Shown here: positions 1 through 45,411 of the stretch, piece by piece
Position numbering within the stretch: the stretch's first letter is position 1
How the letters are laid out: every line of letters begins with the position of its first letter
Assembly: GCA_964446575.1 (NCBI GenBank)
Contig: CAYUOX010000052.1
Span: 180 to 64,179, forward strand
Source of the DNA: an uncultured Anaerolineaceae bacterium
GTDB lineage: Bacteria > Chloroflexota > Anaerolineae > Anaerolineales > DRMV01
DNA: 64,000 bases
Direction: 5' to 3'
Position numbers and translations under genes: made by a program
Notes under the pieces: generated by a model
Seen by the model: only the letters and a program-made list of their open reading frames with translations
Told to the model about the DNA's origin: nothing
Databases searched by the model: none

Positions 1-70
1 TGGGGGGAACGGGATTTGCGACCCGCGTACGTGCGCCATTCGTCCTGCTGTCCGTGCATGAGGCCTGTTT

Positions 71-405
71 TCACGCGTCGACCGCGGCTTGGGTGCGGTC
101 GGCCAAGAGCAACTTGTCCGGAATATGGTTTACGTGGCTGGTGACTGTGCGCTCGCCGATGTGCAAACGCCAGGCGATATGTCCTTGTTGCCCAGGCCTT
201 GGACGCTGAGGCGCGGCCCTTACCCTTCCCGCTCGGTCAGGTCCGCGAACGCGGTGGACGTTTCGGCGATATGGCGGGCACGCACGGTGTGGATTTTTTA
301 CACCAGCCGCGCGGTCACGCTGGGGTGCAGCATGACTTCGCCGCGGGTGGCGCGATGTACCGTGGTGGCCAGTTTCGCAAGGGCGCATTCGCGTTCCCGG
401 TGGAC
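71..405 (-). pseudogene. Decayed NarL/LuxR-family response-regulator remnant (linker plus C-terminal HTH only)
   Basis: Minus-strand translation gives the LuxR-type HTH 'IAWRLHIGERTVTSHVNHIPDKLLLADRTQAAVDA' (178..71) in one frame. The preceding 'VHRERECALAKLATTVHRATRGEVMLHPSVTARLV*' and 'FADLTEREG*GPRLSVQGLGNKDI' lie in another frame with in-frame TAA stops. No receiver domain is found upstream. Confidence 0.6.
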
Positions 406-550
406 TTAGCCCGCGTGGTGCGATGGGCGTTGCCCAGGCGGCGGAGGGGCTGAAAAAATTTGACTTCTCCAAGAAAATAGGTTATCTTCAAGATTGAAGA
501 ACGTATTCGGCCCGGTGGACGGGACACATTATCGCGACAAGGCCTGCCTT

Positions 551-579
551 TTGACATCGTGCCTTTCTCAAGGTATAAC
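551..579 (+). promoter_or_regulatory. Sigma70-type promoter candidate (TTGACA-17 nt-TATAAC)
   Basis: TTGACA at 551-556, an exact 17-nt spacer, and TATAAC at 574-579. It lies upstream of the 704 CDS inside the AT-rich island. Confidence 0.5.
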
Positions 580-703
580 TCCGTGCGCGGTGGCCAAACG
601 CGCTTTTTTCATCGGTATAAAAGATTCTTCTTGCCACAAGGCGTTCAAGAATTTTCGGTGTGCGAAGACCGATCTTTTTCGCCAAGTCAATAAGCGAGGT
701 TAT

Positions 704-1141
704 ATGTGTCTACGACTTTCAAGCCAAAAGATGTTACAGTACACAAAAACCGGTCGCTTAGCGGACGTTATGGCGCTTATCCAAGTGCTGGCCTTGGATG
801 ATGCCGCTCATCGAAGTGAACAAGGTCTGCAGCAGGAATTGCAAGGGATGCCCCGATCGGCTTCGTCTTGGACACAAGTGGCGAAAGAGCATCCAGAATT
901 TTTTCGAGTTGCTCCTAAAGGTTTGCACGTTATCTCGTTAATTGCGCGGCATGTTTTGCCGAAAGACGAATCTGGTCGCCGCCCTCCATTGCCCGAAGAA
1001 CTGGTAGGTCGTTTATTGCAGTCGGCTATTGAACTCTACGATCGGCAAGTTAGGCTGCGGGAGAGATGGACATATCTAATTCCAATTTGGGTTGCTTTGA
1101 TAGGTGGTATATTTGCGGTGATTACATCTCTGCTGAAATAA
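704..1141 (+). CDS. Hypothetical protein with C-terminal transmembrane anchor
   Basis: ATG at 704 is preceded by GAGG 5 nt upstream. The 145-aa product ends in the hydrophobic helix 'WTYLIPIWVALIGGIFAVITSLL'. I recognise no family. Composition is low-GC. Confidence 0.5.
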   Translation: MCLRLSSQKMLQYTKTGRLADVMALIQVLALDDAAHRSEQGLQQELQGMPRSASSWTQVAKEHPEFFRVAPKGLHVISLIARHVLPKDESGRRPPLPEELVGRLLQSAIELYDRQVRLRERWTYLIPIWVALIGGIFAVITSLLK

Positions 1142-1299
1142 AACTTGCGTGAATAATCTCTAAGACCATCTGCGTATTAAGCAATGGAGTGCGACAACTG
1201 GTAGGCAAGTCGGGCTGAGGTGCTTCGCCAGCCAATCGTGTTCGTGGACGGCCACGCCGCGGCGCAGACACCCTTGTTAGCCTACCCAGGAGAACCGCG

Positions 1300-1536
1300 G
1301 TGAAACCATTCAAAGTGCAATTGGCCATTACATTTGGAGCCCTTGTTATTGCCATGATTCTTGTCAAATGGCCATCGTTGGCAATTGATGGGATTACACT
1401 GACGCTTATCGTGATAGCCGTTGTTTTCTGGTTAGCGCCTTTTTTGTTTAAATCATCGTATTGCTTCTTTAGAATCACCGGAAGACTAACCGCACGTTCC
1501 GCGCTCACAGCCCCGCTGCGCATCAGCGGGTGCTAA
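1300..1536 (+). CDS. Small putative 2-TM membrane protein
   Basis: GTG start is preceded by AGGAGA at 1287-1292. Two hydrophobic segments are present (LAITFGALVIAMILV and ITLTLIVIAVVFWLAPFLF). I recognise no family. Confidence 0.35.
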   Translation: MKPFKVQLAITFGALVIAMILVKWPSLAIDGITLTLIVIAVVFWLAPFLFKSSYCFFRITGRLTARSALTAPLRISGC

Positions 1537-1600
1537 AGTTTAAGGCTTGGTGCCAGCGGTGCCGGGCCACGTTCGCAACGGCAATGGACCGCATGACGCC

Positions 1601-1629
1601 TTGCAAGCGTTTTTCTTGCTGCACACAAT
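1601..1629 (+). promoter_or_regulatory. Promoter candidate for ribE (TTGCAA-17 nt-CACAAT)
   Basis: TTGCAA at 1601-1606, a 17-nt spacer, and CACAAT at 1624-1629, about 30 nt before the ribE ATG. Confidence 0.35.
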
Positions 1630-1657
1630 GATGAGAACCTTACATGGAGGAAATGCA

Positions 1658-2260
1658 ATGTTTAGCGGAATCGTAGAGGAGGTCGGCCGCGTGGCTCATA
1701 TCGAGACGCGAGATGGACTTTACGTGTTCCAAATTCGCGCCGACACCGTTTTGAAAGGTACACACGTAGGTGATAGTCTTGCCGTCAATGGGGTTTGCTT
1801 GACCGTGACCTCGCTCTCCCCAACCACTTTTACGGTGGAAGTTGTTCCAGAGACCTTGCGGCGTACTAATCTGAGGTATTTGAAAGTCGGGCATTCAGTT
1901 AATTTGGAGCGTAGCCTGGCCGTAGGAGGACGTATTGGTGGCCATTTCGTCCAAGGCCATGTGGACGACGTAGGAGTCGTCCAGGCACAACATCCTGATG
2001 GTGAGTCGGTTGTGATGCGTTTTACGGCGCCGGAGCATGTAATGCGTTATGTCGTTCCCAAGGGCTTTATTGCTATTGATGGCGTGAGCTTGACCGTAGT
2101 TGAACGTGATGACGACAGTTTTACTGTGGCCTTTATTCCACATACCTTGAGTCATACTGTGGCAGGGCGCTATCAAATTGGAACCGTGGTCAATTTGGAA
2201 GCGGATATCGTGGGCAAGTACGTCGTTCATTGGCTGACTTCCCGGGGTATTCAGGCATAA
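1658..2260 (+). CDS. ribE: Riboflavin synthase (alpha chain)
   Basis: 'MFSGIVEEVGRV' N-terminus and the duplicated lumazine-binding repeat ('NGVCLTV', 'IDGVSLTV'). GGAGG RBS at 1646-1650. Product is 200 aa. Confidence 0.93.
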   Translation: MFSGIVEEVGRVAHIETRDGLYVFQIRADTVLKGTHVGDSLAVNGVCLTVTSLSPTTFTVEVVPETLRRTNLRYLKVGHSVNLERSLAVGGRIGGHFVQGHVDDVGVVQAQHPDGESVVMRFTAPEHVMRYVVPKGFIAIDGVSLTVVERDDDSFTVAFIPHTLSHTVAGRYQIGTVVNLEADIVGKYVVHWLTSRGIQA

Positions 2261-4389: not shown

Positions 4390-4488
4390 AGCGGTCGTCC
4401 GTGGCCGCCCTGGCCGAACCATGACGCGCGTCCCAGCCGGGTCGCAGCCGCGCCCCAGCCTGTTGCCAACCGCGGCGTCCACCCTGGA

Positions 4489-4710
4489 GGTGTTCGACAA
4501 TTTCACACGGGGGCACGGAGATCACGGAGGGAAGGAGCGCAGAAAGGGGGGAGGGTATGGAGGGCCGTTGGAAAAGCAAACCGGCGCGAATCTGCCGCGT
4601 TCTCTATTGGCGAGCGCTTCCAGGGAGCGTTTCGCTCCGCGCTGCCGATAGGCCCGGCAGGGTATGGGGCAAAACCACGGCTCACGGCGATACGTCGATT
4701 TTTCAAACCG
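4489..4710 (+). repeat. Dispersed intergenic repeat, copy A (MITE-like, with TIR-like ends)
   Basis: Aligns by eye along its length with 18899-19129 (reverse complement) and 33729-~33920. Conserved blocks are GGTGTTCRANAATTTCAC, CACGGNGANCAC, GGAGGRCCGTTGGRAAAGCAAACC and GGGGCAAAAC. The ends are GGTGTTCGACAATTT and AAATCGACG..TTTTTCAAACCG, an imperfect inverted repeat. Confidence 0.85.
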
Positions 4711-4723
4711 TCTCTGTCCACCC

Positions 4724-4752
4724 TTGACAACCTGGCAAGCCTGTCTTAACAT
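4724..4752 (+). promoter_or_regulatory. Promoter of the MarR gene (TTGACA-17 nt-TAACAT)
   Basis: TTGACA at 4724-4729, a 17-nt spacer, and TAACAT at 4747-4752, 32 nt before the ATG at 4784. Confidence 0.55.
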
Positions 4753-9118: not shown

Positions 9119-10489
9119 ATGGTGCCTTCTTCGCCTTTGCGTTTGGCCGATGCGCTGCGCCTGCAAGGCCACGAGCACGTGGCGTTGGTCGGCGCGGGCG
9201 GCAAGACGCGCACCCTCTTCACTTTGGCCCGAGAGTTAGCACCGGCGCTGGTCGTGACCACGACCCACTTGGCGCGCGAGGAAGCCGCACAGGCCGACCT
9301 CCATTGGGTGTGGGACCCCCATCTCTCGGCCGTGGCCGCGCGCCAAGCCCTGGATCGGTGGTCCCGCCAAGGGGTGTTGCTGGTCACCGGCCCGGCTCAC
9401 GCCGCACGCTGGACCGCGACGCCCGCGCTGGCCGCAGTGCAGGCTTGGGCCCGCGCTCGCGGCCTGCCCGTGCTTATCGAGGCCGACGGGGCGGCCCGGC
9501 GTGATCTCAAAGCCCCGGCGTCGCACGAACCCGCTTGGCCGCCTTACGCCGACGGCGTGTTGGTGCTGGCCCACGCGGCCGCCGTAGGACAGCCCCTCAC
9601 GGCCGAGCGGGTGCACCGTGCCGAGCGTTTTGCCGCGTTGGCCGGGCTGCCCTTGGCCGCGCGGCTCACCGTGGACGCGATCGCGCGCGTCTTGCGGCAC
9701 CCCCAAGGGCCCACGCGCGGGGTCCCGCGCGGCGCGTGGGTGCGGGCCGTGCTGCGCGGCGAAGACGCCCTCACCCAGGCGCGAGCCGGGCGTTTGGCTC
9801 GCGCGTTGCTCGCCTCGCGAGGACCCTACACCGCCGCGGCGGTCGTGCACACCACCCCTCGCGGGCAGGTGCGGCCCGTGGCCGTGGAAGAGCCGCGCGC
9901 GGGGGCGGTCTTGGCCGCGGGGGCCGCGCGGCGCTTTGGCGGTCGCCCCAAAGTGCTGCTGCGCTGGCAGGGCGAGCCCTTGGTGCGCCGCGCGGCGCGG
10001 GTCGCGTGGGAAGCCGGCTTACGGCCGGTCGTGGTCGTCGTAGGCGCGTCCGCGGACGCCGTCACGGCTGCCGTGGCCGATTTGCCGGTGCGCGTGGTGC
10101 ACAATCCAGCCTGGCGCGCGGGCTTGTCCACCTCCGTGCGGGCCGCGCTGCAGGCCATCGTCGACGCGGCGCCCGCCACCGGGGCCGTGGTCTTCTTCCC
10201 CGCGGATCACCCCCACTTGCCGTTGCGCTTACCCCGGGCCCTGGTCGAGGCGCACGCCGCCACGCTGGCCCCGATTGTGGCACCGCTGCTCATGGGCCAA
10301 CGCCGCGGGCAGCCCGTGCTGTTCGACCAGCGCACATTCACCGACCTGGCCACGCTGCAAGGGGATGTGGGCGGACGCGCCTTGTGGCGCCGCTATCCCG
10401 CGCATGGCGTGCTCTGGCTGGATGAAGCCGTCGGCGAGGACATCGATACGCCGCAAGACTGGGTCCGCTGGCAGGAGAGGCCGCGATGA
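9119..10489 (+). CDS. Fusion protein: YqeC-family hydroxylase accessory protein + MobA/MocA-like molybdenum-cofactor nucleotidyltransferase
   Basis: N-terminal half has the YqeC-like P-loop 'HVALVGAGGKTRTLFTLARELAPALVVTTTHL'. C-terminal half is MocA/MobA-like: 'AVLAAGAARRFGGRPKVLLRWQGEPLVRR...VVFFPADHPHL...DIDTPQD'. Confidence 0.7.
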   Translation: MVPSSPLRLADALRLQGHEHVALVGAGGKTRTLFTLARELAPALVVTTTHLAREEAAQADLHWVWDPHLSAVAARQALDRWSRQGVLLVTGPAHAARWTATPALAAVQAWARARGLPVLIEADGAARRDLKAPASHEPAWPPYADGVLVLAHAAAVGQPLTAERVHRAERFAALAGLPLAARLTVDAIARVLRHPQGPTRGVPRGAWVRAVLRGEDALTQARAGRLARALLASRGPYTAAAVVHTTPRGQVRPVAVEEPRAGAVLAAGAARRFGGRPKVLLRWQGEPLVRRAARVAWEAGLRPVVVVVGASADAVTAAVADLPVRVVHNPAWRAGLSTSVRAALQAIVDAAPATGAVVFFPADHPHLPLRLPRALVEAHAATLAPIVAPLLMGQRRGQPVLFDQRTFTDLATLQGDVGGRALWRRYPAHGVLWLDEAVGEDIDTPQDWVRWQERPR

Positions 10490-11580
10490 GACGCTGGCTG
10501 GGCGTGTTGTTGCGCGTGACCGCGCGGGTGGTGGTCGGCTTCTTCCCCGCGGTCGCCCTGCTTTTCGTCATCCTCATCGAGCCGTGGGCGAACATCGCAC
10601 TGAAAGGGATGCTGATTCTGACCGCGCTGCTCTTGGCGGTCTTGTGGTGGCATTCTCGCCGAGACCCCGCGTTGCGTCAGGCTTTGTGGATCGCAGGCCT
10701 GTTCTTGGTAGTGACCATTGCCTGCGGCACCACCGCGGCCCTTTTCTTCGCGCGTCTGACTTGGCAGGATTTGTGGGCTCGGGCCGTGCACGCCACCGCG
10801 GTGCCCCCGTCGCCGCGCGCGACCGAACCGCCCTTGCCTTCCCAACAGCGGTTGTGGCACGAGGCCGCGCCCGAATGGCTGGCCCAATCGGTGTCGTGGG
10901 ATCTGCTGCCCTTGCCTGCCATGCCTTGGTGGCGCGCGGGGTTCTGGGAGGTGGCCGCGGAGCCCCAATGGCCCTACACCCGCTTCCTACCCGGCGGGGC
11001 GTATCAGGTCGTCGTGCCTCAACCCTTGCAGGCCGCGCTGCTTTTGGCCCCTTGGGGCCGCGCGCCCAGCGCGGATGTGACCATTCGGGCCCAACTCCGC
11101 TGGGAGGGGCTGTCGCGCGTGGGGGTGTGGGGGGTCGTGTGCCGCGCCCAAAACGCGACGCGTTTCTACGCCTTTACGGTGCGCGGGGATGACTGGGCCG
11201 CCATTTGGAAGCACACCCCCGACGGTGCGGTCAAATTGGCTCCTTGGACCCAGTGGCGGCTCCCCGAGCCAGAGCGGTCGCGGGGCGAGCCGCCCGTGGG
11301 CGTGGTGCCAGCGCCCACCGCGCCCGCGCCGGCTGCGGTCACGCCTACGGTGACGCCCACGCCGGGCCTGCCGCGCGTCCAAGGTCGCGCGCGGCTGACC
11401 GCGGTCTGCCGCGGTCGTACGCTGCAGTTGTATGTGGATGGCTTGCTCGCGGCCGAGGCCGAAGACCCCGATCCTTATGTCGGCGGTGCGGTGGGGTTGT
11501 GGGCCGTGGCCCCGCCGACCGGTGACTGGCAGGTGACTTGGCTGGACTTTGACGTGTATCTGGATGCACCGTCGCGATGA
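10486..11580 (+). CDS. Membrane-anchored hypothetical protein with Pro/Thr linker and beta-rich C-terminal parts
   Basis: ATGA overlap with the upstream gene. Three N-terminal TM helices. 'YAFTVRGDDWAAIWKH' and 'LQLYVDGLLAAEAEDP...GLWA' resemble a lectin/jelly-roll-like fold, which is inference. Confidence 0.55.
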   Translation: MRRWLGVLLRVTARVVVGFFPAVALLFVILIEPWANIALKGMLILTALLLAVLWWHSRRDPALRQALWIAGLFLVVTIACGTTAALFFARLTWQDLWARAVHATAVPPSPRATEPPLPSQQRLWHEAAPEWLAQSVSWDLLPLPAMPWWRAGFWEVAAEPQWPYTRFLPGGAYQVVVPQPLQAALLLAPWGRAPSADVTIRAQLRWEGLSRVGVWGVVCRAQNATRFYAFTVRGDDWAAIWKHTPDGAVKLAPWTQWRLPEPERSRGEPPVGVVPAPTAPAPAAVTPTVTPTPGLPRVQGRARLTAVCRGRTLQLYVDGLLAAEAEDPDPYVGGAVGLWAVAPPTGDWQVTWLDFDVYLDAPSR

Positions 11581-18707: not shown

Positions 18708-18898
18708 CCGCACGTCGCGCCTCTGGGCCGTGGCCGAATCTGCCCGGCGGCGCTTTGCCGCGCACGAGGTCCGAACCGCGGCCCTGGGGCGTGGTGGGGC
18801 CCTGCCCATCATGCCGCCGAGGCCGGGGTGGGGCCCCCATGTCCGCGCAGGGCGGCGTCTGCTCGCGCGGGCGCGCGACCATGGCGCGCTAACCGCGG

Positions 18899-19129
18899 GG
18901 CTGTTCGAAAAATCGACGAATCGCCCTGAGCCGTGGTTTTGCCCCCTGCCCTCCTGGGCCCATCCGCAGCGCTGAGCGGAATGGCCCTCCGAAATCGCGC
19001 ACACAAAAAGAAAGCGGCTGATTCACGCTGGTTTGCTTTCCCAACGGCCCTCCAGGCCCTGGAGGGCCTCCTTTCTTCTCTTCTTCACCCCGGTGCTCTC
19101 CGTGGCCCCGTGTGAAATTCTTGAACACC
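18899..19129 (-). repeat. Dispersed intergenic repeat, copy B (inverted orientation)
   Basis: Its reverse complement aligns with copy A over the whole length, including both ends (GGTGTTCAAGAATTTCAC ... TCGTCGATTTTTCGAACAGCC). It contains the extra palindrome GGCCCTCCAGGCCCTGGAGGGCC at 19046-19068. Confidence 0.85.
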
Positions 19130-19140
19130 CCCGTTAACCG

Positions 19141-19169
19141 TTGACCCGACGGGCGAACCCGCCTACAAT
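19141..19169 (+). promoter_or_regulatory. Promoter (TTGACC-17 nt-TACAAT) giving a probably leaderless mRNA
   Basis: TTGACC at 19141-19146, a 17-nt spacer, and TACAAT at 19164-19169. The ATG at 19177 lies only 7 nt after the -10 box and has no SD. Confidence 0.55.
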
Positions 19170-19176
19170 TGCTGCC

Positions 19177-21564
19177 ATGGCCGACTTTTTCGCCTGGTAT
19201 GCCCTGATCACGTTGGCCGGCTGGTTGGCGCTGCCGCTGGTGTGGCGCTTGTGGCCTGGCCTCCCTTCGCGGGGGTATCCGTACGCGCGGCCGGTGGGCT
19301 GGCTGCTGTGGGGGTTCGTCTACTGGTGGCTGGGCACCTTGGGTTTGGCGCGGCCCGGCGCAGGCGGCGCGTGGGCCGCGGGAGGACTGCTGTTGGGCTG
19401 CGCGGCCCTCGTGTTGGCACGACCGCGCGTGCGCGACCGTTTGCGCGCCTGGTTGCGGGCGCATTGGGCCTTGGTGGGAACCACCGAGGTGGTCTTCGCG
19501 GTGGCCTTCGCGGGGTGGGCCTTGGTGCGCGCGGCCGCGCCCGATATTGTGGGCACCGAAAAGCCCATGGAGTTGGCCTTCATTCAGGCCCTTTTGCGCA
19601 GCGAGGCCTTTCCGCCGCACGACCCTTGGCTTGCGGGGTACGCGATTTCTTACTATTACTTCGGCTATTTGCTCACCGCTCTGCTGGCGACGCTGGCCGG
19701 CACGCCGGGCCCGGTGGCGTTCAATTTGGCCGTGGCCCTCACCTTTGGCTTGGCCGCCAGCAGTGCCTATGGGTTGGGGTATGACCTGTTGGCTCCCCGC
19801 CTGCGTCCGCGCCCCGCGCGCGGGTGGGCCCTGCTCACGCCGCTCATGGTGCTGGTGGTGAGCAACTGGGAGGGCTTGCTCGAAGTGCTCCATCGTCGCG
19901 GCGTGTTTTGGCGCGGGACCACCTCGTCCTTTTGGGCCTGGCTGGACATTCTCAACCTGAACGAACCGCCGACCGGCACATCGTGGCCCCCACGCTTTTG
20001 GTGGTGGTGGCGGGCCAGCCGGGTGCTGCACGACACCTCCCTGAGCGGCGCGCACCAAGAAGTTATCGACGAATTCCCCTTCTTTTCGTTCCTGTTGGGC
20101 GATCTGCACCCTCATGTGTTGGCCATCCCCTTTGGGATGGTTGCGTTGGCGTTGGCGTTGCACCTCTATCGGCGGGGGACAGGCTTCGCGCGGGGCCGGC
20201 TGGGGTATCCGTGGCCTCATCTGGTGTTTTGGGCCGTGGTGTTGGGGGGGCTGTCCTTTTTGAACACATGGGACTTTCCTCTTTATGTGGCCTTGGCCGC
20301 GGCCGCGTGGGGGCTGCATGTGCGCCACCGCGGTGGTTATTGGCGCGCGGCCGCGCAGGAGGCGGCCCGTTGGGCTGTGACGGTGGGGCTGCTGGGGGTG
20401 GGGCTGTACTTGCCCTTCTACCTGGGCTTTGGCTCGCAAGCGCGCGGCTTTTTGCCCAACTTGCTCAATCCGTCTCGGGGCGCGCATTTGTGGGTGATGT
20501 TTGGCCCTTTGTGGGTGCCGCTGGCGTTGATGTTGGCCTTGGCCGCGCGGCGGGCCTCCTGGGCTGCGTTGGGGCGCGGGTTCGCCGCGGCCGCGGGTGT
20601 GACCGTGGGCCTGGCCGCGCTGGCGTGGCTCATGGCCGGCATCATGGGCCTCTTGCCCGCGGGCGACGCGTATCTCAGCCTGTACGCCGCGGCCGACATG
20701 GCCACCTTGGCCCGCGAGGCCTTGGCCCGGCAGGCGCGCGCGGTGGCCGGGCCGTTGACGTTGCTGCTGTTGGGCGGCTTGGCCGTGGGCCTGCTCCTCG
20801 CGGGTCGTGAGACGCGCGCGCAACGCGGCGGGGCCCGGCCCCAACCGGAGGGTTTCCCCCTGTTGTTGATCGCCTGGGGAGCGCTATTGGTGCAGGTCCC
20901 CAATTTCGTGTATTTGTGGGACCATTTCGGCACCCGCATGAACACGGTGTTCAAGTTTTACTACCAGGCTTGGCAGTTGTGGGCGGTGGCCGCGGCGTAT
21001 GCGTGGGTGTGGTTGGCGCGGCAGCGCTGGGCCTGGGTGCTGACCGGCTTGGCCGTGGCCGCGGGGCTGGTGTATCCGGCGTTGGCTTTGCCCGAGCGCG
21101 CGGCCCACTTTCGGCCGCCCCAGGGGTGGACGTTGGACGGGAGCGCGTGGCTGCAGCGCACCAACCCTGACGATTGGGCCGCGGCACAAGCCTTGGCTCG
21201 TGCGCCTTTGGGCACGTTGGCCGAGGCCGTAGGGGGGAGTTACTCGGAGTACGCGCGGCTGAGCACTTACAGCGGCCAGCCCGCGGTGGTGGGATGGCTG
21301 GGCCACGAGGGGCAGTGGCGGGGAGGTTACGCCGAGGTGGGCACGCGGCCGCAAGACATCGAGCGCCTTTACACCACCCGCAATTGGGAGACCGCCCGCG
21401 CCATTTTGGAGCGCTACGGCATTCGCTATGTGGCTTTGGGCGATCTGGAGCGGCGGACCTACGCGGCGCAGCCCGATTTGTGGGAGCGCCATTTGGTGGT
21501 GTGGTGGCGCCAAGGCACGACCACCATCTATTATTGGGCCCCCGAGGTTGCGCCCACGCGGTGA
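19177..21564 (+). CDS. DUF2298 'YYY' integral membrane protein (Chloroflexi/Archaea family, GT-C-like)
   Basis: 'DPWLAGYAISYYYFGYLL' YYY motif. More than 15 predicted TM helices. Product is 795 aa, with a soluble C-terminal domain. Confidence 0.85.
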   Translation: MADFFAWYALITLAGWLALPLVWRLWPGLPSRGYPYARPVGWLLWGFVYWWLGTLGLARPGAGGAWAAGGLLLGCAALVLARPRVRDRLRAWLRAHWALVGTTEVVFAVAFAGWALVRAAAPDIVGTEKPMELAFIQALLRSEAFPPHDPWLAGYAISYYYFGYLLTALLATLAGTPGPVAFNLAVALTFGLAASSAYGLGYDLLAPRLRPRPARGWALLTPLMVLVVSNWEGLLEVLHRRGVFWRGTTSSFWAWLDILNLNEPPTGTSWPPRFWWWWRASRVLHDTSLSGAHQEVIDEFPFFSFLLGDLHPHVLAIPFGMVALALALHLYRRGTGFARGRLGYPWPHLVFWAVVLGGLSFLNTWDFPLYVALAAAAWGLHVRHRGGYWRAAAQEAARWAVTVGLLGVGLYLPFYLGFGSQARGFLPNLLNPSRGAHLWVMFGPLWVPLALMLALAARRASWAALGRGFAAAAGVTVGLAALAWLMAGIMGLLPAGDAYLSLYAAADMATLAREALARQARAVAGPLTLLLLGGLAVGLLLAGRETRAQRGGARPQPEGFPLLLIAWGALLVQVPNFVYLWDHFGTRMNTVFKFYYQAWQLWAVAAAYAWVWLARQRWAWVLTGLAVAAGLVYPALALPERAAHFRPPQGWTLDGSAWLQRTNPDDWAAAQALARAPLGTLAEAVGGSYSEYARLSTYSGQPAVVGWLGHEGQWRGGYAEVGTRPQDIERLYTTRNWETARAILERYGIRYVALGDLERRTYAAQPDLWERHLVVWWRQGTTTIYYWAPEVAPTR

Positions 21565-31839: not shown

Positions 31840-33177
31840 TCAGGCGGTTTCCAGATAGCGCGCCACCTCCCAGTCGGTCACTTGCATGCGATATTCGGCC
31901 ACCTCGGCCTTCTTGGCCCGCATGAACGCGGCGTACAAACGCTCGCCCAGCGCGGCCTGAAGCACCTCGTCGCGCTCCAATTCGTCCAAGGCCTCTTCCA
32001 GCGAGCCTGGCAGGGATTGCACGCCTTTGGCCCGCCGCTCTTCTTCGCTGAGTTCATACAGGTTGATGTGGTCCATCGCGGGCGGCGGTGTCAACTTCCG
32101 ATCGATGCCGTCCAGGCCCGCAGCCAGCATGGCCGCGAAGGCCAAATACGGGTTCGCGGAGGGATCGGGGAAGCGCAGTTCCATTCGCACGGACTTGGAT
32201 TTGCCCTCTTTGGGCCGCGGAATGCGCACCAAGGCCGAGCGGTTGATTTGGGCCCAGGCGATGTACACCGGCGCTTCGTAGCCGGGCACCAGGCGCTTGT
32301 AGGAGTTCACCGTGGGCGCCACTACCGCGGTCAGCGCACGCGCGTGGGCCAATTGCCCGGCCAAGAACGCGTATGCCAAATCGGAGAGCAAATAGGGGTC
32401 GTTGGGCGCGTAGAACAGATTGTTTCCTTGCGTGTCGAACAAGGATTGGTGGCAGTGCATGCCGGAGCCGTTGATGCCATACACGGGTTTGGGCATGAAC
32501 GACGCGATCAAGCCGTGTTGATGCGCGATGGCCTTGACGGTGTATTTGAGGGTGACCACGTTGTCCGCGGCGACCAGGGCATCGGCAAAGCGAAAGTCGA
32601 TTTCGTGTTGCCCCAGCGCGACTTCGTGATGGCCCATTTCGATGTCCAGGCCCATGCTGGTGAGCGCGTCCATGAGTTGCGTGCGCACGCGCACGGCTTC
32701 GTCGTTGGCCGAAAAGTCGAAATATCCCCCCACATCATGGGGCACGGGCCGCACTGCATCGCCGTTGCGCTTGAACAAGAAAAACTCGGGTTCGGGCCCG
32801 ATGTTGTAGATCCAGCCCCGGGTTTCGCGCAGGCGGGCCAACATGCGCTTGAGATTGCCGCGCGGGTCACCGACAAAAGGTGTGCCGTCGGGCAAGTAGA
32901 CATCACAGAAAATGCGGGCCCGGCGCCGTTCTTCAGGCGTCCAAGGCAGCACCGCATAGGTGTCGATGTCGAGCACCAAACGCATGTCGCTTTCTTGAAT
33001 GCGCGCGAACCCCTCGATGGACGAGCCGTCGAACCACACGCCGTCTTCTAAGGCTTCGGGCAATTTGCTGACCGGAATGTCAACGCTTTTGACCGCGCCG
33101 GTCACATCGGTAAATTGCAGAGAGATGAAGCGAACGCGGTCTTCACGCACGCGGGTCATCAGTTCGTCGCGGGTCAT
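31840..33177 (-). CDS. glnA: Glutamine synthetase, type I
   Basis: 'VRFISLQFTDVTGAVKSVDIP', 'FDGSSIEGF' and 'GSGMHCHQSLF' motifs. GGAGGTG RBS before the ATG at 33177. The upstream 67 codons of the track ORF were rejected. Confidence 0.95.
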   Translation of the reverse strand: MTRDELMTRVREDRVRFISLQFTDVTGAVKSVDIPVSKLPEALEDGVWFDGSSIEGFARIQESDMRLVLDIDTYAVLPWTPEERRRARIFCDVYLPDGTPFVGDPRGNLKRMLARLRETRGWIYNIGPEPEFFLFKRNGDAVRPVPHDVGGYFDFSANDEAVRVRTQLMDALTSMGLDIEMGHHEVALGQHEIDFRFADALVAADNVVTLKYTVKAIAHQHGLIASFMPKPVYGINGSGMHCHQSLFDTQGNNLFYAPNDPYLLSDLAYAFLAGQLAHARALTAVVAPTVNSYKRLVPGYEAPVYIAWAQINRSALVRIPRPKEGKSKSVRMELRFPDPSANPYLAFAAMLAAGLDGIDRKLTPPPAMDHINLYELSEEERRAKGVQSLPGSLEEALDELERDEVLQAALGERLYAAFMRAKKAEVAEYRMQVTDWEVARYLETA

Positions 33178-33681
33178 AAGCACCTCCAAAAAAGGAATGA
33201 GATAGCCTCTTGTGGCCGGGCCTGGCCGGAAGACCACGGTTTCTCGAGCCCAGGGCGGGTTGGCTCGAGGCGCCTGTTTAAAGCAAACAGGCACGCCGGG
33301 CGTGCCTGCGGGTTTGCGTTCCCATTGTAAACGGCCGCCCCTTCCAAAGCGCGCGACCAGGGCCATGCCCTGGGCCACTGGGCCGGCCTTGGCCCACCCG
33401 TCGCCGGATGGTTTTCAGCACGGCCCTTTGCCGGAAGGGGAAGAGCGAGGCCCGTGGCCAGGCCTCGGAGGCATCCGCTGAACTGTCCGATTTTCCCCGG
33501 CGGTGGAGCCGGTGCCACGTCCAGGGGATACACCCTGGCCCATCGCACCGACCGCTCGGGTTAGCACTCCCCTCGCGGGGAGGAACCTCCACCTCGTAGC
33601 CTCACGGTGCTGCAAAGAGATACCCGTGAGGCCCAGCCGCTACTCTTCCTATGCGGTTGTTGTGGGCCTGGAGCCCAATTG
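33178..33681 (-). ncRNA. Long, highly structured 5' leader or independent ncRNA upstream of glnA (unclassified)
   Basis: It lies downstream of a consensus promoter. Perfect stems include 33600-33631, 33567-33582 (GNRA-type loop GCGA), 33357-33373 and 33243-33269. An intrinsic terminator lies at 33276-33308. No convincing ORF is present. Confidence 0.4.
33276..33308 (-). terminator. Intrinsic terminator inside the glnA upstream region
   Basis: The minus strand reads CAGGCACG-CCCGG-CGTGCCTG followed by TTTGCTTTAAA, about 100 nt upstream of the glnA ATG. Confidence 0.6.
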
Positions 33682-33687
33682 CAGGCC

Positions 33688-33716
33688 ATTCTACGCGCAC
33701 TTGGGCGTCCTGTCAA
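33688..33716 (-). promoter_or_regulatory. Near-consensus promoter (TTGACA-17 nt-TAGAAT) reading toward glnA
   Basis: Minus strand has TTGACA (33716..33711), a 17-nt spacer, and TAGAAT (33693..33688). Confidence 0.6.
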
Positions 33717-33728
33717 GGGCGCGAGCGG

Positions 33729-33920
33729 GGTGTTCGAAAATTTCACCCGGGGACACGGTGAGCACGGCGGGAGGGAGTACAGAAAGGGGATTTTAGGGCA
33801 TGGAGGACCGTTGGAAAAGCAAACCGGCGTGAATTTGCCCCTTTCGCGATTTGCGCGCGATTCTGGGGGCGTTCTGCTCCGCGCTGCGGATGAGCCCGGG
33901 AGGGCATGGGGCAAAACATG
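33729..33920 (+). repeat. Dispersed intergenic repeat, copy C (3'-truncated or diverged)
   Basis: Aligns with copy A from GGTGTTCGAAAATTTCAC through GGGGCAAAAC. Similarity is lost after ~33918, near the 3' end of the GT39-like gene. Confidence 0.8.
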
Positions 33921-33955
33921 GAGAGCGCGAAGGTGTCCGGCGTCCCTCGCGCCCG

Positions 33956-44457: not shown

Positions 44458-45411
44458 CTACGAGGCCGACCGACTTCGGCGCAGGTGCTCCAAAACGGCT
44501 TGCAGTTCGGGCGGAAGGGGGGCCTCGAATGTGCGCGGCGTGGGTTCGCCGGGCAGGCGTAGGGTCAAGCGATGCGCGTGCAAAAAATGGCGTTCCAGGG
44601 GCAGGCGGCCTTTGTGGCGCGGGGCATAAAGGGCATCGCCCGCGATGGGCGTGCCTAAGAACGCCGCGTGCACCCGAATTTGATGCGTGCGCCCCGTAAT
44701 CGGCCGAAAGCGCACCAGCGCGTAGCCCGGAAACCGCTCCAGCACTTCAAATTCGGTGTAGGCCTCGCGGCCTCGACCTGGGGTGGTCACGCGCATGCGC
44801 TGACGATGCGCGGGGTCGCGTTCGATGGGCGCTTCGATGCGCCCGCGCCCGGCCGGCGGATGTCCGATGACCAGTCCTATGTACTCCTTGCGCACTTGGC
44901 GCGCCCGAAATTGGTCTTGCAAGAATTGGTGCGCGGCGTCGTTCTTGGCTAAAATCAGCACGCCCGAGGTATCCTTGTCCAGCCGATGGACCAAGCCAGG
45001 GCGCAACACGCCGCCGACTCCGGCCATGTCGGGCGCGTGAGCCAATGCCGCGTGCACCAGCGTGCCGCGGTCGTGGCCCGGCGAGGGGTGCACGACCATG
45101 CCTGCGGGCTTGTCCACCACCAGCACATCTTCGTTTTCGAACAGCACCCGCAGCGGGATGGGTTCGGGCTCAATGGTGGCCGGTTGCGGGGGCGGCACGC
45201 GCACCACGACCGTTGCCGCGCGATCCAGCCAGTAGCCGGGTTTGGTGATCACACGGCCGTCCACCGTCACCCGCCCTTCGCGAATCCAGTTCTGAACACG
45301 GGCGCGTGAATATGTGCCCTGGAGGGCTTGGACGAGGAAGCGATCCAGCCGTTGGCGTGGCTGTTGGGCCGTTGGTCGAAACGCGAAGGCGCGCGTCTGC
45401 GATTCGTTCAT
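44458..45411 (-). CDS. rluD: RluA-family 23S rRNA pseudouridine synthase (RluD-like)
   Basis: S4 domain 'RLDRFLVQAL...RVQNWIREGRVTVDG' and catalytic motif 'HRLDKDTSGVLILAKN'. Confidence 0.9.
   Translation of the reverse strand: MNESQTRAFAFRPTAQQPRQRLDRFLVQALQGTYSRARVQNWIREGRVTVDGRVITKPGYWLDRAATVVVRVPPPQPATIEPEPIPLRVLFENEDVLVVDKPAGMVVHPSPGHDRGTLVHAALAHAPDMAGVGGVLRPGLVHRLDKDTSGVLILAKNDAAHQFLQDQFRARQVRKEYIGLVIGHPPAGRGRIEAPIERDPAHRQRMRVTTPGRGREAYTEFEVLERFPGYALVRFRPITGRTHQIRVHAAFLGTPIAGDALYAPRHKGRLPLERHFLHAHRLTLRLPGEPTPRTFEAPLPPELQAVLEHLRRSRSAS

Follow-up and report, generated by a model that had tools for sequence, protein, structure and literature searches.

A low-copy intergenic repeat of about 230 bp, resembling miniature transposable elements, in an uncultured Anaerolineaceae bacterium

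Bacterial miniature inverted-repeat transposable elements (MITEs), such as Correia/NEMIS in Neisseria, RUP in Streptococcus pneumoniae, ERIC/IRU in enterobacteria and MIC231 in Bacillus cereus, are small (100–400 bp), non-coding units with terminal inverted repeats (TIRs) and short target duplications. They are dispersed between genes, carry no transposase of their own, include truncated and decayed copies, and lie near gene starts, so that effects on expression are possible. Here, we describe a repeat of comparable build in a stretch of 64,000 nucleotides (the window) from an uncultured Anaerolineaceae bacterium of the Chloroflexota (GenBank assembly GCA_964446575.1, contig CAYUOX010000052.1, positions 180 to 64,179). 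Correia and RUP, which are of the IS630 type, have a target-site duplication (TSD) of TA, whereas the putative TSD of the element described here is about 9 bp; likewise, these MITE families comprise tens to hundreds of copies, whereas at least five copies of this element were found. These comparisons, and those with insertion sequence (IS) families below, concern general features.

The repeat is probably a miniature, non-autonomous DNA transposon of the MITE type, about 230 bp long, low in copy number and restricted to one species. This assignment follows from a discrete unit of ~230 bp with a significant TIR, flanking duplications of ~9 bp, no open reading frame (ORF), no transposase in the ORFs examined, and dispersed, variously truncated copies, two of which lie beyond the window. 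A non-autonomous mobile element was one of three readings offered by a first-pass annotation of the DNA, made from the letters alone, next to a structured small RNA (sRNA) family and a modular regulatory cassette. The element behaves like the known bacterial MITEs and matches none of them by sequence, and it constitutes a previously undescribed family.

Three copies are present in the window. Copy A (4486–4715, + strand) and copy B (18896–19131, − strand) are full length, at ~230 nt and ~235 nt, respectively, while copy C (33725–33921, + strand) lacks its last ~45 nt, including the 3′ TIR, as had been recognized before. The location, strand and mutual alignability of the three segments, first noticed by eye, were confirmed on the sequence with MAFFT and nhmmer, although the ends lie a few nucleotides further out than initially placed. 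The boundaries obtained with BLAST and nhmmer agree in copies A and B and give a full length of 230–236 bp. Additionally, the same 5′ end is common to copy C and to copy E, and the 3′ end of copy D is that of the full-length copies (D and E, from other contigs, are described below). Pairwise identity is 75–81% among A, B and C, similar to but slightly higher than the two-thirds to three-quarters estimated previously, and 69–85% once D and E are added; mean column identity in the three-way MAFFT alignment is 80%. An nhmmer profile of the three copies matched them at E values of 1e-81, 5e-77 and 2e-71, with no fourth match at E ≤ 10 in the window, and self-BLAST identified A, B and C as its sole internal repeats. 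Furthermore, the 18-mer at the 5′ terminus occurs three times in the window, against 0.02 expected. The similarity of the three copies is real and far above the GC-rich background, and with E values of 1e-71 to 1e-81 the concern that it might be no better than that background was dispelled.

The family TIR is 14 bp long (GGGGYGTTCGAAAA). The 5′ consensus GGGGTGTTCGAAAA and the reverse complement of the 3′ end of copy D, GGGGCGTTCGAAAA, agree at 13 of 14 positions, and none of 5000 shuffles gave as good a match. In copy B, the TIRs at 19131–19118 (GGGGTGTTCAAGAA) and at 18898–18911 on the + strand (GGGCTGTTCGAAAA) were equalled in 19 of 5000 shuffles, and copy C carries a perfect 5′ TIR at 33727–33740 (GGGGTGTTCGAAAA). 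Copy A starts with G-GAGGTGTTCGACAA and has a degenerate 3′ terminus (…GATTTTTCAAACCGTCTCT). The inverted-repeat ends previously assigned to both full-length copies thus hold for the family and for copy B, but are degenerate in A. Across the sampled DNA, the TIR 14-mer is present at six of the seven intact element termini, the exception being the 3′ end of A, and one more match, with two mismatches, lies inside a rluD-like gene (45134–45147). Integron attC-type core sites (RYYYAAC/GTTRRRY) were sought by eye at the element ends and none matched; a tRNA-derived origin was discarded as well, the window containing neither tRNA nor tmRNA. Copy B alone contains a perfect palindrome with 11-bp arms at 19046–19068 (GGCCCTCCAGG-C-CCTGGAGGGCC), which arises from a private 6-nt insertion. 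It is followed on the + strand by a T/C-rich run and was scored as terminator-like.

Direct repeats were also found on both sides of each copy in the window, where the first-pass annotation had seen no target-site duplication, with matches of 9/9 in A and 8/9 in both B and C. Copy A is bracketed by GTCCACCCT at 4477–4485 on the left and at 4716–4724 on the right, the final T of the latter being the first base of a −35 hexamer. This match grows to 11/12 over the segments GTCCACCCTGGA (4477–4488) and GTCCACCCTTGA (4716–4727), with a 9/9 core, and was equalled in 1 of 5000 shuffles (p~0.0014 against the real-genome background, taken from 20,000 random positions of the window). Copy B is flanked on its 5′ side by CGGTTAACG (19132–19140, − strand), which adjoins a −35 hexamer, and on its 3′ side by CGGTTAGCG (18887–18895, − strand), with a match of 8/9 (9/12; 111 of 5000 shuffles, background p~0.07). 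The candidate repeats of copy C, AGGGCGCGA on the 5′ side (33716–33724) and AGAGCGCGA on the 3′ side (33922–33930), also match at 8/9 (9/12), with an offset of 2 nt, and are not significant alone (488 of 5000 shuffles, background p~0.07). Combined over A, B and C, in which alone flanking repeats are assessable as D and E each lack one end, the p value is about 6e-4. Copy A thus gives a convincing signal, while those of B and C are only suggestive; a duplication length of ~9 bp fits best. The reconstructed empty sites read …GCGGCGTCCACCCTTGACAACC… for A and …GCGCTAACCGTTGACCCG… for B. The three copies are nearly evenly spaced, at ~14.4 and ~14.8 kb from centre to centre, with A/B and B/C mutually inverted. 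This even spacing is probably a coincidence, since the flanking duplication of A itself argues for insertion as a single unit.

The window is part of an 82.7-kb metagenomic contig, k141_88058 of ENA ERZ27262694, with near-identical contigs in JGI 3300028908 and Logan SRR8542060; copy A is present in each of these assemblies, which represent one population. Overall, ~105 kb of this organism was examined for the element, and at least five copies were identified on three contigs (the window, L112/L068 and L110/L111) of one organism, with the same samples and 66% GC. Copy D (L068:571–732, also L112 ~9961–10145) has lost its first ~85 nt and retains a complete 3′ end. It was recovered with a 20-base core pattern, for which the JGI metagenomes yielded only three matches (copies A, B and D), all in sample 3300028908. 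The missing 5′ part of D adjoins an apparently headless gene fragment on the minus strand, a protein-like stop-free frame at L068:337–560 (−) (corresponding to L112 upstream of D; HFALGGQPLPIETVHYLEGEAERHFLVPNDLVGIMGNAPFLAGWLVLDFLRERASLWVPPPSRADAAV, then a stop) that has no plausible start and no Pfam match. This frame is possibly a gene remnant of the deletion that truncated D. Copy E (L110:10108–~10231) comprises the 5′ module plus the core as far as the first T-rich stretch, with unrelated sequence beyond. Judged by eye, its homology stops where a convergent ORF appears to have its stop codon. Copy E was revealed, by way of a spurious ORF call, in a search of the + frame peptide profile against 1.84 billion representative proteins. 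Just downstream of copy E, an indel of ~150 nt separates the ENA contig (L110 ~10345–10495) from the JGI contig (L111 ~7288), inside the apparent 3′ part of a minus-strand ORF.

The element was confined to this organism in all collections searched. A core 17-mer gave 63 matches in the GTDB representatives (596 Gb), which equals the chance expectation, and none of them fit the element profile. In IMG/VR, the core and the 5′ terminal motif gave 2 and 33 matches, all of them chance or coding, and blastn against PLSDB in distant mode gave no match. Taken together, the element has no similarity in Rfam, PLSDB, IMG/VR, the GTDB representatives or the JGI metagenomes beyond the one sample. No copy was present in the retrieved DNA of relatives carrying homologues of the M48 peptidase (73, 65 and 61% identity) or of GlnA (at least 90% identity), and a literature search on MITEs in Chloroflexi found nothing relevant. 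The homologues of the flanking M48 peptidase and a cluster-mate of the GyrA-like protein are labelled Chloroflexi, Chloroflexota or Anaerolineae, and the window is ordinary chromosome, with gyrA/parC-like, glnA, pheA, rluD-like, xerC-like and lspA genes. The genome-wide family expected from three copies in 64 kb is only weakly supported, with at least five copies known and a single organism as their source.

As is usual for repeats, the element interrupts short-read contigs, which end inside it or at its edge. The Logan contigs L066 and L107 break within the conserved core of copy A. The JGI contig L067 (Ga0256914_1002791) corresponds to window 33218–18894 and ends 2 nt past the outer terminus of copy B, while its other end falls inside the glnA leader; these end points may reflect structural heterogeneity in the population.

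The copies in the window also share a position relative to promoters. When sites of the form TTGACA-17±1-TATAAT were scored (sigma-70-like, at least 10 of 12 positions), nine were found in the whole window, and three of these adjoin copies A, B and C, lying outside them and reading away. Beside the 3′ end of A, TTGACA-17-TAACAT (4724–4752, + strand, 10/12) begins 8 nt from the terminus and serves a marR-family gene or operon (ATG 4784). Beside the 5′ end of B, TTGACC-17-TACAAT (19141–19169, + strand, 10/12) lies 9 nt from the terminus and belongs to a DUF2298 gene. Its −10 hexamer, TACAAT, ends 7 nt before the ATG at 19177, so that the DUF2298 mRNA is apparently leaderless. Beside the 5′ end of C, TTGACA-17-TAGAAT (33688–33716, − strand, 11/12), with its −35 hexamer 10 nt from the terminus, drives the ~500-nt leader of glnA (33177–~33680; ATG 33177, Shine-Dalgarno sequence GGAGG). 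The terminal GAAC/AAAC of the TIR is 14–15 nt from the −35 hexamer in A, B and C, whichever element end faces the promoter, and the proximal flanking repeat stops at this hexamer or one base into it. Neither the −35 nor the −10 hexamer is part of the repeat, and the spacers between them are not alignable among the three promoters. All three copies are intergenic and occupy tandem-gene spacers (of about 99, 190 and 40 nt), each copy following the stop of a co-directional gene and preceding the promoter of the gene after it; the truncated end of copy C is 36 nt from the stop of its upstream gene. For insertions confined to those spacers, the probability of the three terminal positions arising by chance was roughly estimated at 1e-4 to 1e-5. 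The A/T-rich element termini fall at about −52 to −63 of the three promoters. Several of the other strong sites in the window have 'CC' before TTGACA or A/T-rich upstream tracts.

This promoter adjacency, with n=3, is no more than a lead. From the fixed position at A, B and C, we infer a preference for insertion at the upstream edge of promoters or retention only there; target preference, selection for position and a functional A/T-rich terminus could each account for it. In a more specific proposal, which we consider quite unlikely, the element would be a promoter-seeking transposon whose transposase selects the ~9 bp next to the −35 hexamer, on its upstream side, in active sigma-70 promoters; promoter-bound RNA polymerase or the geometry of promoter DNA might guide it there. 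In the same proposal, and with the same low probability, the element would act as a mobile upstream module combining an A/T-rich, UP-like tract with an insulator against read-through out of the preceding gene. The shared position of all three window copies in either orientation, with duplications that end at −35, is compatible with this proposal.

If the element is a MITE, a transposase encoded elsewhere in the genome would act in trans by recognizing the 14-bp TIRs, and a staggered cut on insertion would duplicate about 9 bp of the target. At the three promoters, the A/T-rich terminal repeat would then take the position of about −52 to −63, displacing the earlier upstream sequence. After insertion, the copies would diverge to the 69–85% identity given above, and later trimming by deletion or rearrangement would remove the 3′ parts of C and E and the 5′ part of D. 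Several points weigh against this reading. With five copies known, the statistics of the family are thin, and the 3′ TIR of copy A is not significant (2110 of 5000 shuffles as good). Taken singly, the flanking repeats of B and C are marginal, and they are offset from the TIR by a variable 0 to 2 nt. If real, the repeat at copy C would be a TSD on a copy without one TIR, which requires that an internal deletion later removed sequence almost precisely up to the terminus. The ~105 kb of the organism yielded no autonomous IS whose ends match those of the element, and no empty site was seen: the relatives compared (M48 peptidase 61–73% identical, GlnA at least 90% identical) lack synteny at all three sites, so that no empty site could be aligned. 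Finally, no promoter lies beside the intact 3′ end of D or the intact 5′ end of E, each of these copies being without its other end.

Among the alternatives, the possibility that the repeats are degenerate small protein-coding genes or gene fragments is very remote. It derives from the + frame that begins at the GTG of GGTGTTC (MFxNFTRGHGEH…GGPLEKQTG…), which is stop-free for ~40 codons in A, B, C and E, has indels in multiples of three in the 5′ half, and places five of the six variable columns of its first 36 nt on third codon positions; gene callers also predicted ORFs over D and E. However, the periodicity is lost past these 36 nt (variable columns by codon position 3/5/3, 6/6/4, 4/2/5 and 3/2/2), the full-length copies are frame-shifted relative to C/D (A by +1 nt, B by +2 nt), the start codon varies, with TGG in its place in E, no ribosome-binding site occurs at a usable spacing, and long stop-free frames are common in a genome of 66% GC. 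The profile search against representative proteins returned only two spurious ORFs over D and E, from the same organism; a repeat search against 5.8 billion clusters returned the same two and nothing else, and Pfam gave no match in the element translation. A protein-coding family was rejected on the basis of the frame breaks between copies and the lack of homologues outside the organism. The earlier observation of no transposase and no consistent ORF was thereby borne out, with frames differing between copies and no transposase among the main ORFs of the window examined or in the flanks of D and E. A family of structured small RNAs, whether as genes or as cis-acting elements transcribed from the repeat, is also improbable, if less so. 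The size of ~230 nt and the intergenic location would fit, a 5-bp hairpin followed by ATTTTTC near the 3′ end keeps its pairing through a GU/GC swap in D, and alignment columns 111–144 could form a hairpin whose loop varies. Against this, Rfam gave no gathering-threshold match in the window and none even at E ≤ 10 over copies A and C, and the minimum free energy z-scores of copy A are +0.20 and +0.98. The z-score of −2.0 for copy B is equal on both strands and therefore reflects DNA palindromes, namely the TIRs and the private palindrome at 19046–19068. The RNAalifold covariation term is unfavourable on both strands (+0.56 and +0.62 kcal/mol, from four sequences and thus of low power), compensatory changes affect only 2 of 44 pairs on one strand and 0 of 30 on the other, and several pairs are broken. 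Furthermore, no promoter-like site was found within the element or upstream of it at a conserved position, copies missing either end persist, and no relatives were found outside one species. The sRNA reading of the first-pass annotation is not supported, for want of an Rfam match, a consistent fold and covariation.

A further alternative is that the repeat is not a transposon but a cis-regulatory cassette placed upstream of promoters, spread by recombination or duplication and kept by selection. Such a cassette could contain binding sites for a regulator, such as the CACGG-N-CACGG doublets of the two end modules, or a UP-like A/T tract, or an insulator or terminator. We regard this reading, including the proposed contents, as unlikely. 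The fixed distance from GAAC to −35 at three of the nine strong promoter-like sites is in its favour, as is the location of every window copy between an upstream co-directional gene and the next promoter. The A/T-rich termini would suit it as well, other strong promoters of the organism being also A/T-rich upstream, and two small sites consisting of a hairpin plus a T-run occur on the element sense strand in A and D. However, the orientation to the promoter varies, A facing it with its 3′ end and B and C with their 5′ ends, and the downstream genes are functionally unrelated (the marR operon, DUF2298 and glnA). The canonical UP-element region spans −40 to −57, and the A/T tract is centred upstream of the canonical distal subsite by about half a helical turn. 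D and E have no adjacent promoter, and the TIRs and flanking duplications point to spread by transposition. The internal blocks are conserved no more than expected by chance: the conserved motifs quoted in the first-pass annotation are present, but their clustering is no better than random, as the longest invariant run covers 10 columns (permutation p=0.53) and a runs test over the 89 variable columns gave p=0.075. With invariant blocks no more clustered than random scatter, nothing indicates functional constraint inside the element. Its fixed position upstream of strong promoters is an unexpected hint of the modular regulatory cassette suggested earlier, which survives only as a possible side effect; the cassette reading would also agree with a MITE that affects regulation secondarily.

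The leader of glnA, beside copy C, contains a region (33370–33652, − strand) that matches the Rfam model of the glmS ribozyme (RF00234) over its full length. This match is sub-threshold, with 22.4 bits against a gathering score of 37 and an E value of 0.003–0.006. The leader keeps the blocks AGCG-CUG, ACGAGG, GGAGGUU, GCGGAUGCCUCC (12/12) and AAAAC, most displayed stem positions are compensated pairs with no non-canonical pair flagged, and two large insertions of 102 and 36 nt are present. The region folds unusually stably (z = −2.97) and is followed, before the glnA ATG, by a terminator-like hairpin (CAGGCACG-CCCG-CGTGCCTG + TTTGCTTT, ~33306–33278). Two relatives with GlnA at least 90% identical (L117 and L118) have only ~85 nt upstream of glnA and no such leader. 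To our knowledge, a glmS-type ribozyme before a glutamine synthetase gene, instead of glmS, would be unusual, and the leader would interest riboswitch researchers if it were catalytically competent. In relatives (L117, L118 and L108), glnA stands beside a DUF4405-DUF2202-Ala_racemase_N-FHA-purH cluster, while here the DUF2202-Ala_racemase_N-purH genes are located ~35 kb from glnA (31840–33177), past the window end. The glnA neighbourhood, the site of copy C, has therefore been rearranged.

Other features were observed in the sampled DNA. Between copies A and B, the segment 6290–14192 encodes ATP-grasp/PGM1_C, YqeC/NTP_transf_3, radical SAM and glycosyltransferase proteins, and continues with AAA_16-TPR-FGE-sulfatase and STAND NTPase genes; it could be a biosynthetic cluster. 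On the contig of copy D, a flavin mononucleotide (FMN) riboswitch (98 bits) is located at L112:12749–12891 (+), upstream of an ABC-transporter-like operon. The ENA contig and the JGI contig L065, from the same population, differ by a 38-nt indel at window positions 1369–1408, which is strain variation or an assembly difference, and GC content is 53% in window positions 1–2000 against ~66% in the remainder.

As a MITE family, the repeat is a routine addition, being species-restricted, low in copy number and known from the metagenome-assembled genome of an uncultured member of the Chloroflexota. Its practical effects are modest: it fragments short-read assemblies, as in the Logan and JGI contigs, leads gene callers to spurious ORFs (P0101 and P0102), and may mark points of rearrangement or deletion, as in the truncated copies C, D and E. 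The interest lies in its placement, in either orientation, at 8–10 bp from the −35 hexamer on the upstream side of three strong promoters that are unrelated to one another. If this held true across the complete genome, the element would provide a natural case of a bacterial transposon that selects promoter edges as targets, or of a mobile module upstream of promoters.

Comparison with other known systems places the element as follows. REP/BIME sequences (repetitive extragenic palindromes and bacterial interspersed mosaic elements) are likewise intergenic, repeated and non-coding, but they are palindromes of 20–40 bp, often clustered and without TSDs, whereas the unit described here measures 230 bp, has TIRs and flanking duplications, and contains no dominant palindrome except the private one in copy B. 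The IS256, ISL3 and IS4-type families have target duplications of 8–9 bp and GG-initial TIRs followed by an A/T run. The element has a similar GG-initial TIR with an A/T run of the TTCGAAAA type and a duplication of ~9 bp; no transposase gene or full-length IS with these ends was found in the ~105 kb, and these types are candidate families only. Putative mobile promoters and UP-element-like sequences are likewise homologous intergenic sequences just upstream of the promoters of unrelated genes, and as a functional analogy, both they and this element place an A/T-rich tract upstream of −35 in a GC-rich genome. In contrast to mobile promoters, the −35 and −10 hexamers here lie outside the repeat and the spacers are unalignable, and the A/T tract lies at about −52 to −63 rather than in the canonical UP region. 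We know of no bacterial MITE family that holds a fixed position relative to the promoter −35 hexamer. A promoter-seeking transposon, as tentatively proposed above, would be a bacterial analogue of Ty3/Tf1-type promoter-targeted integration.

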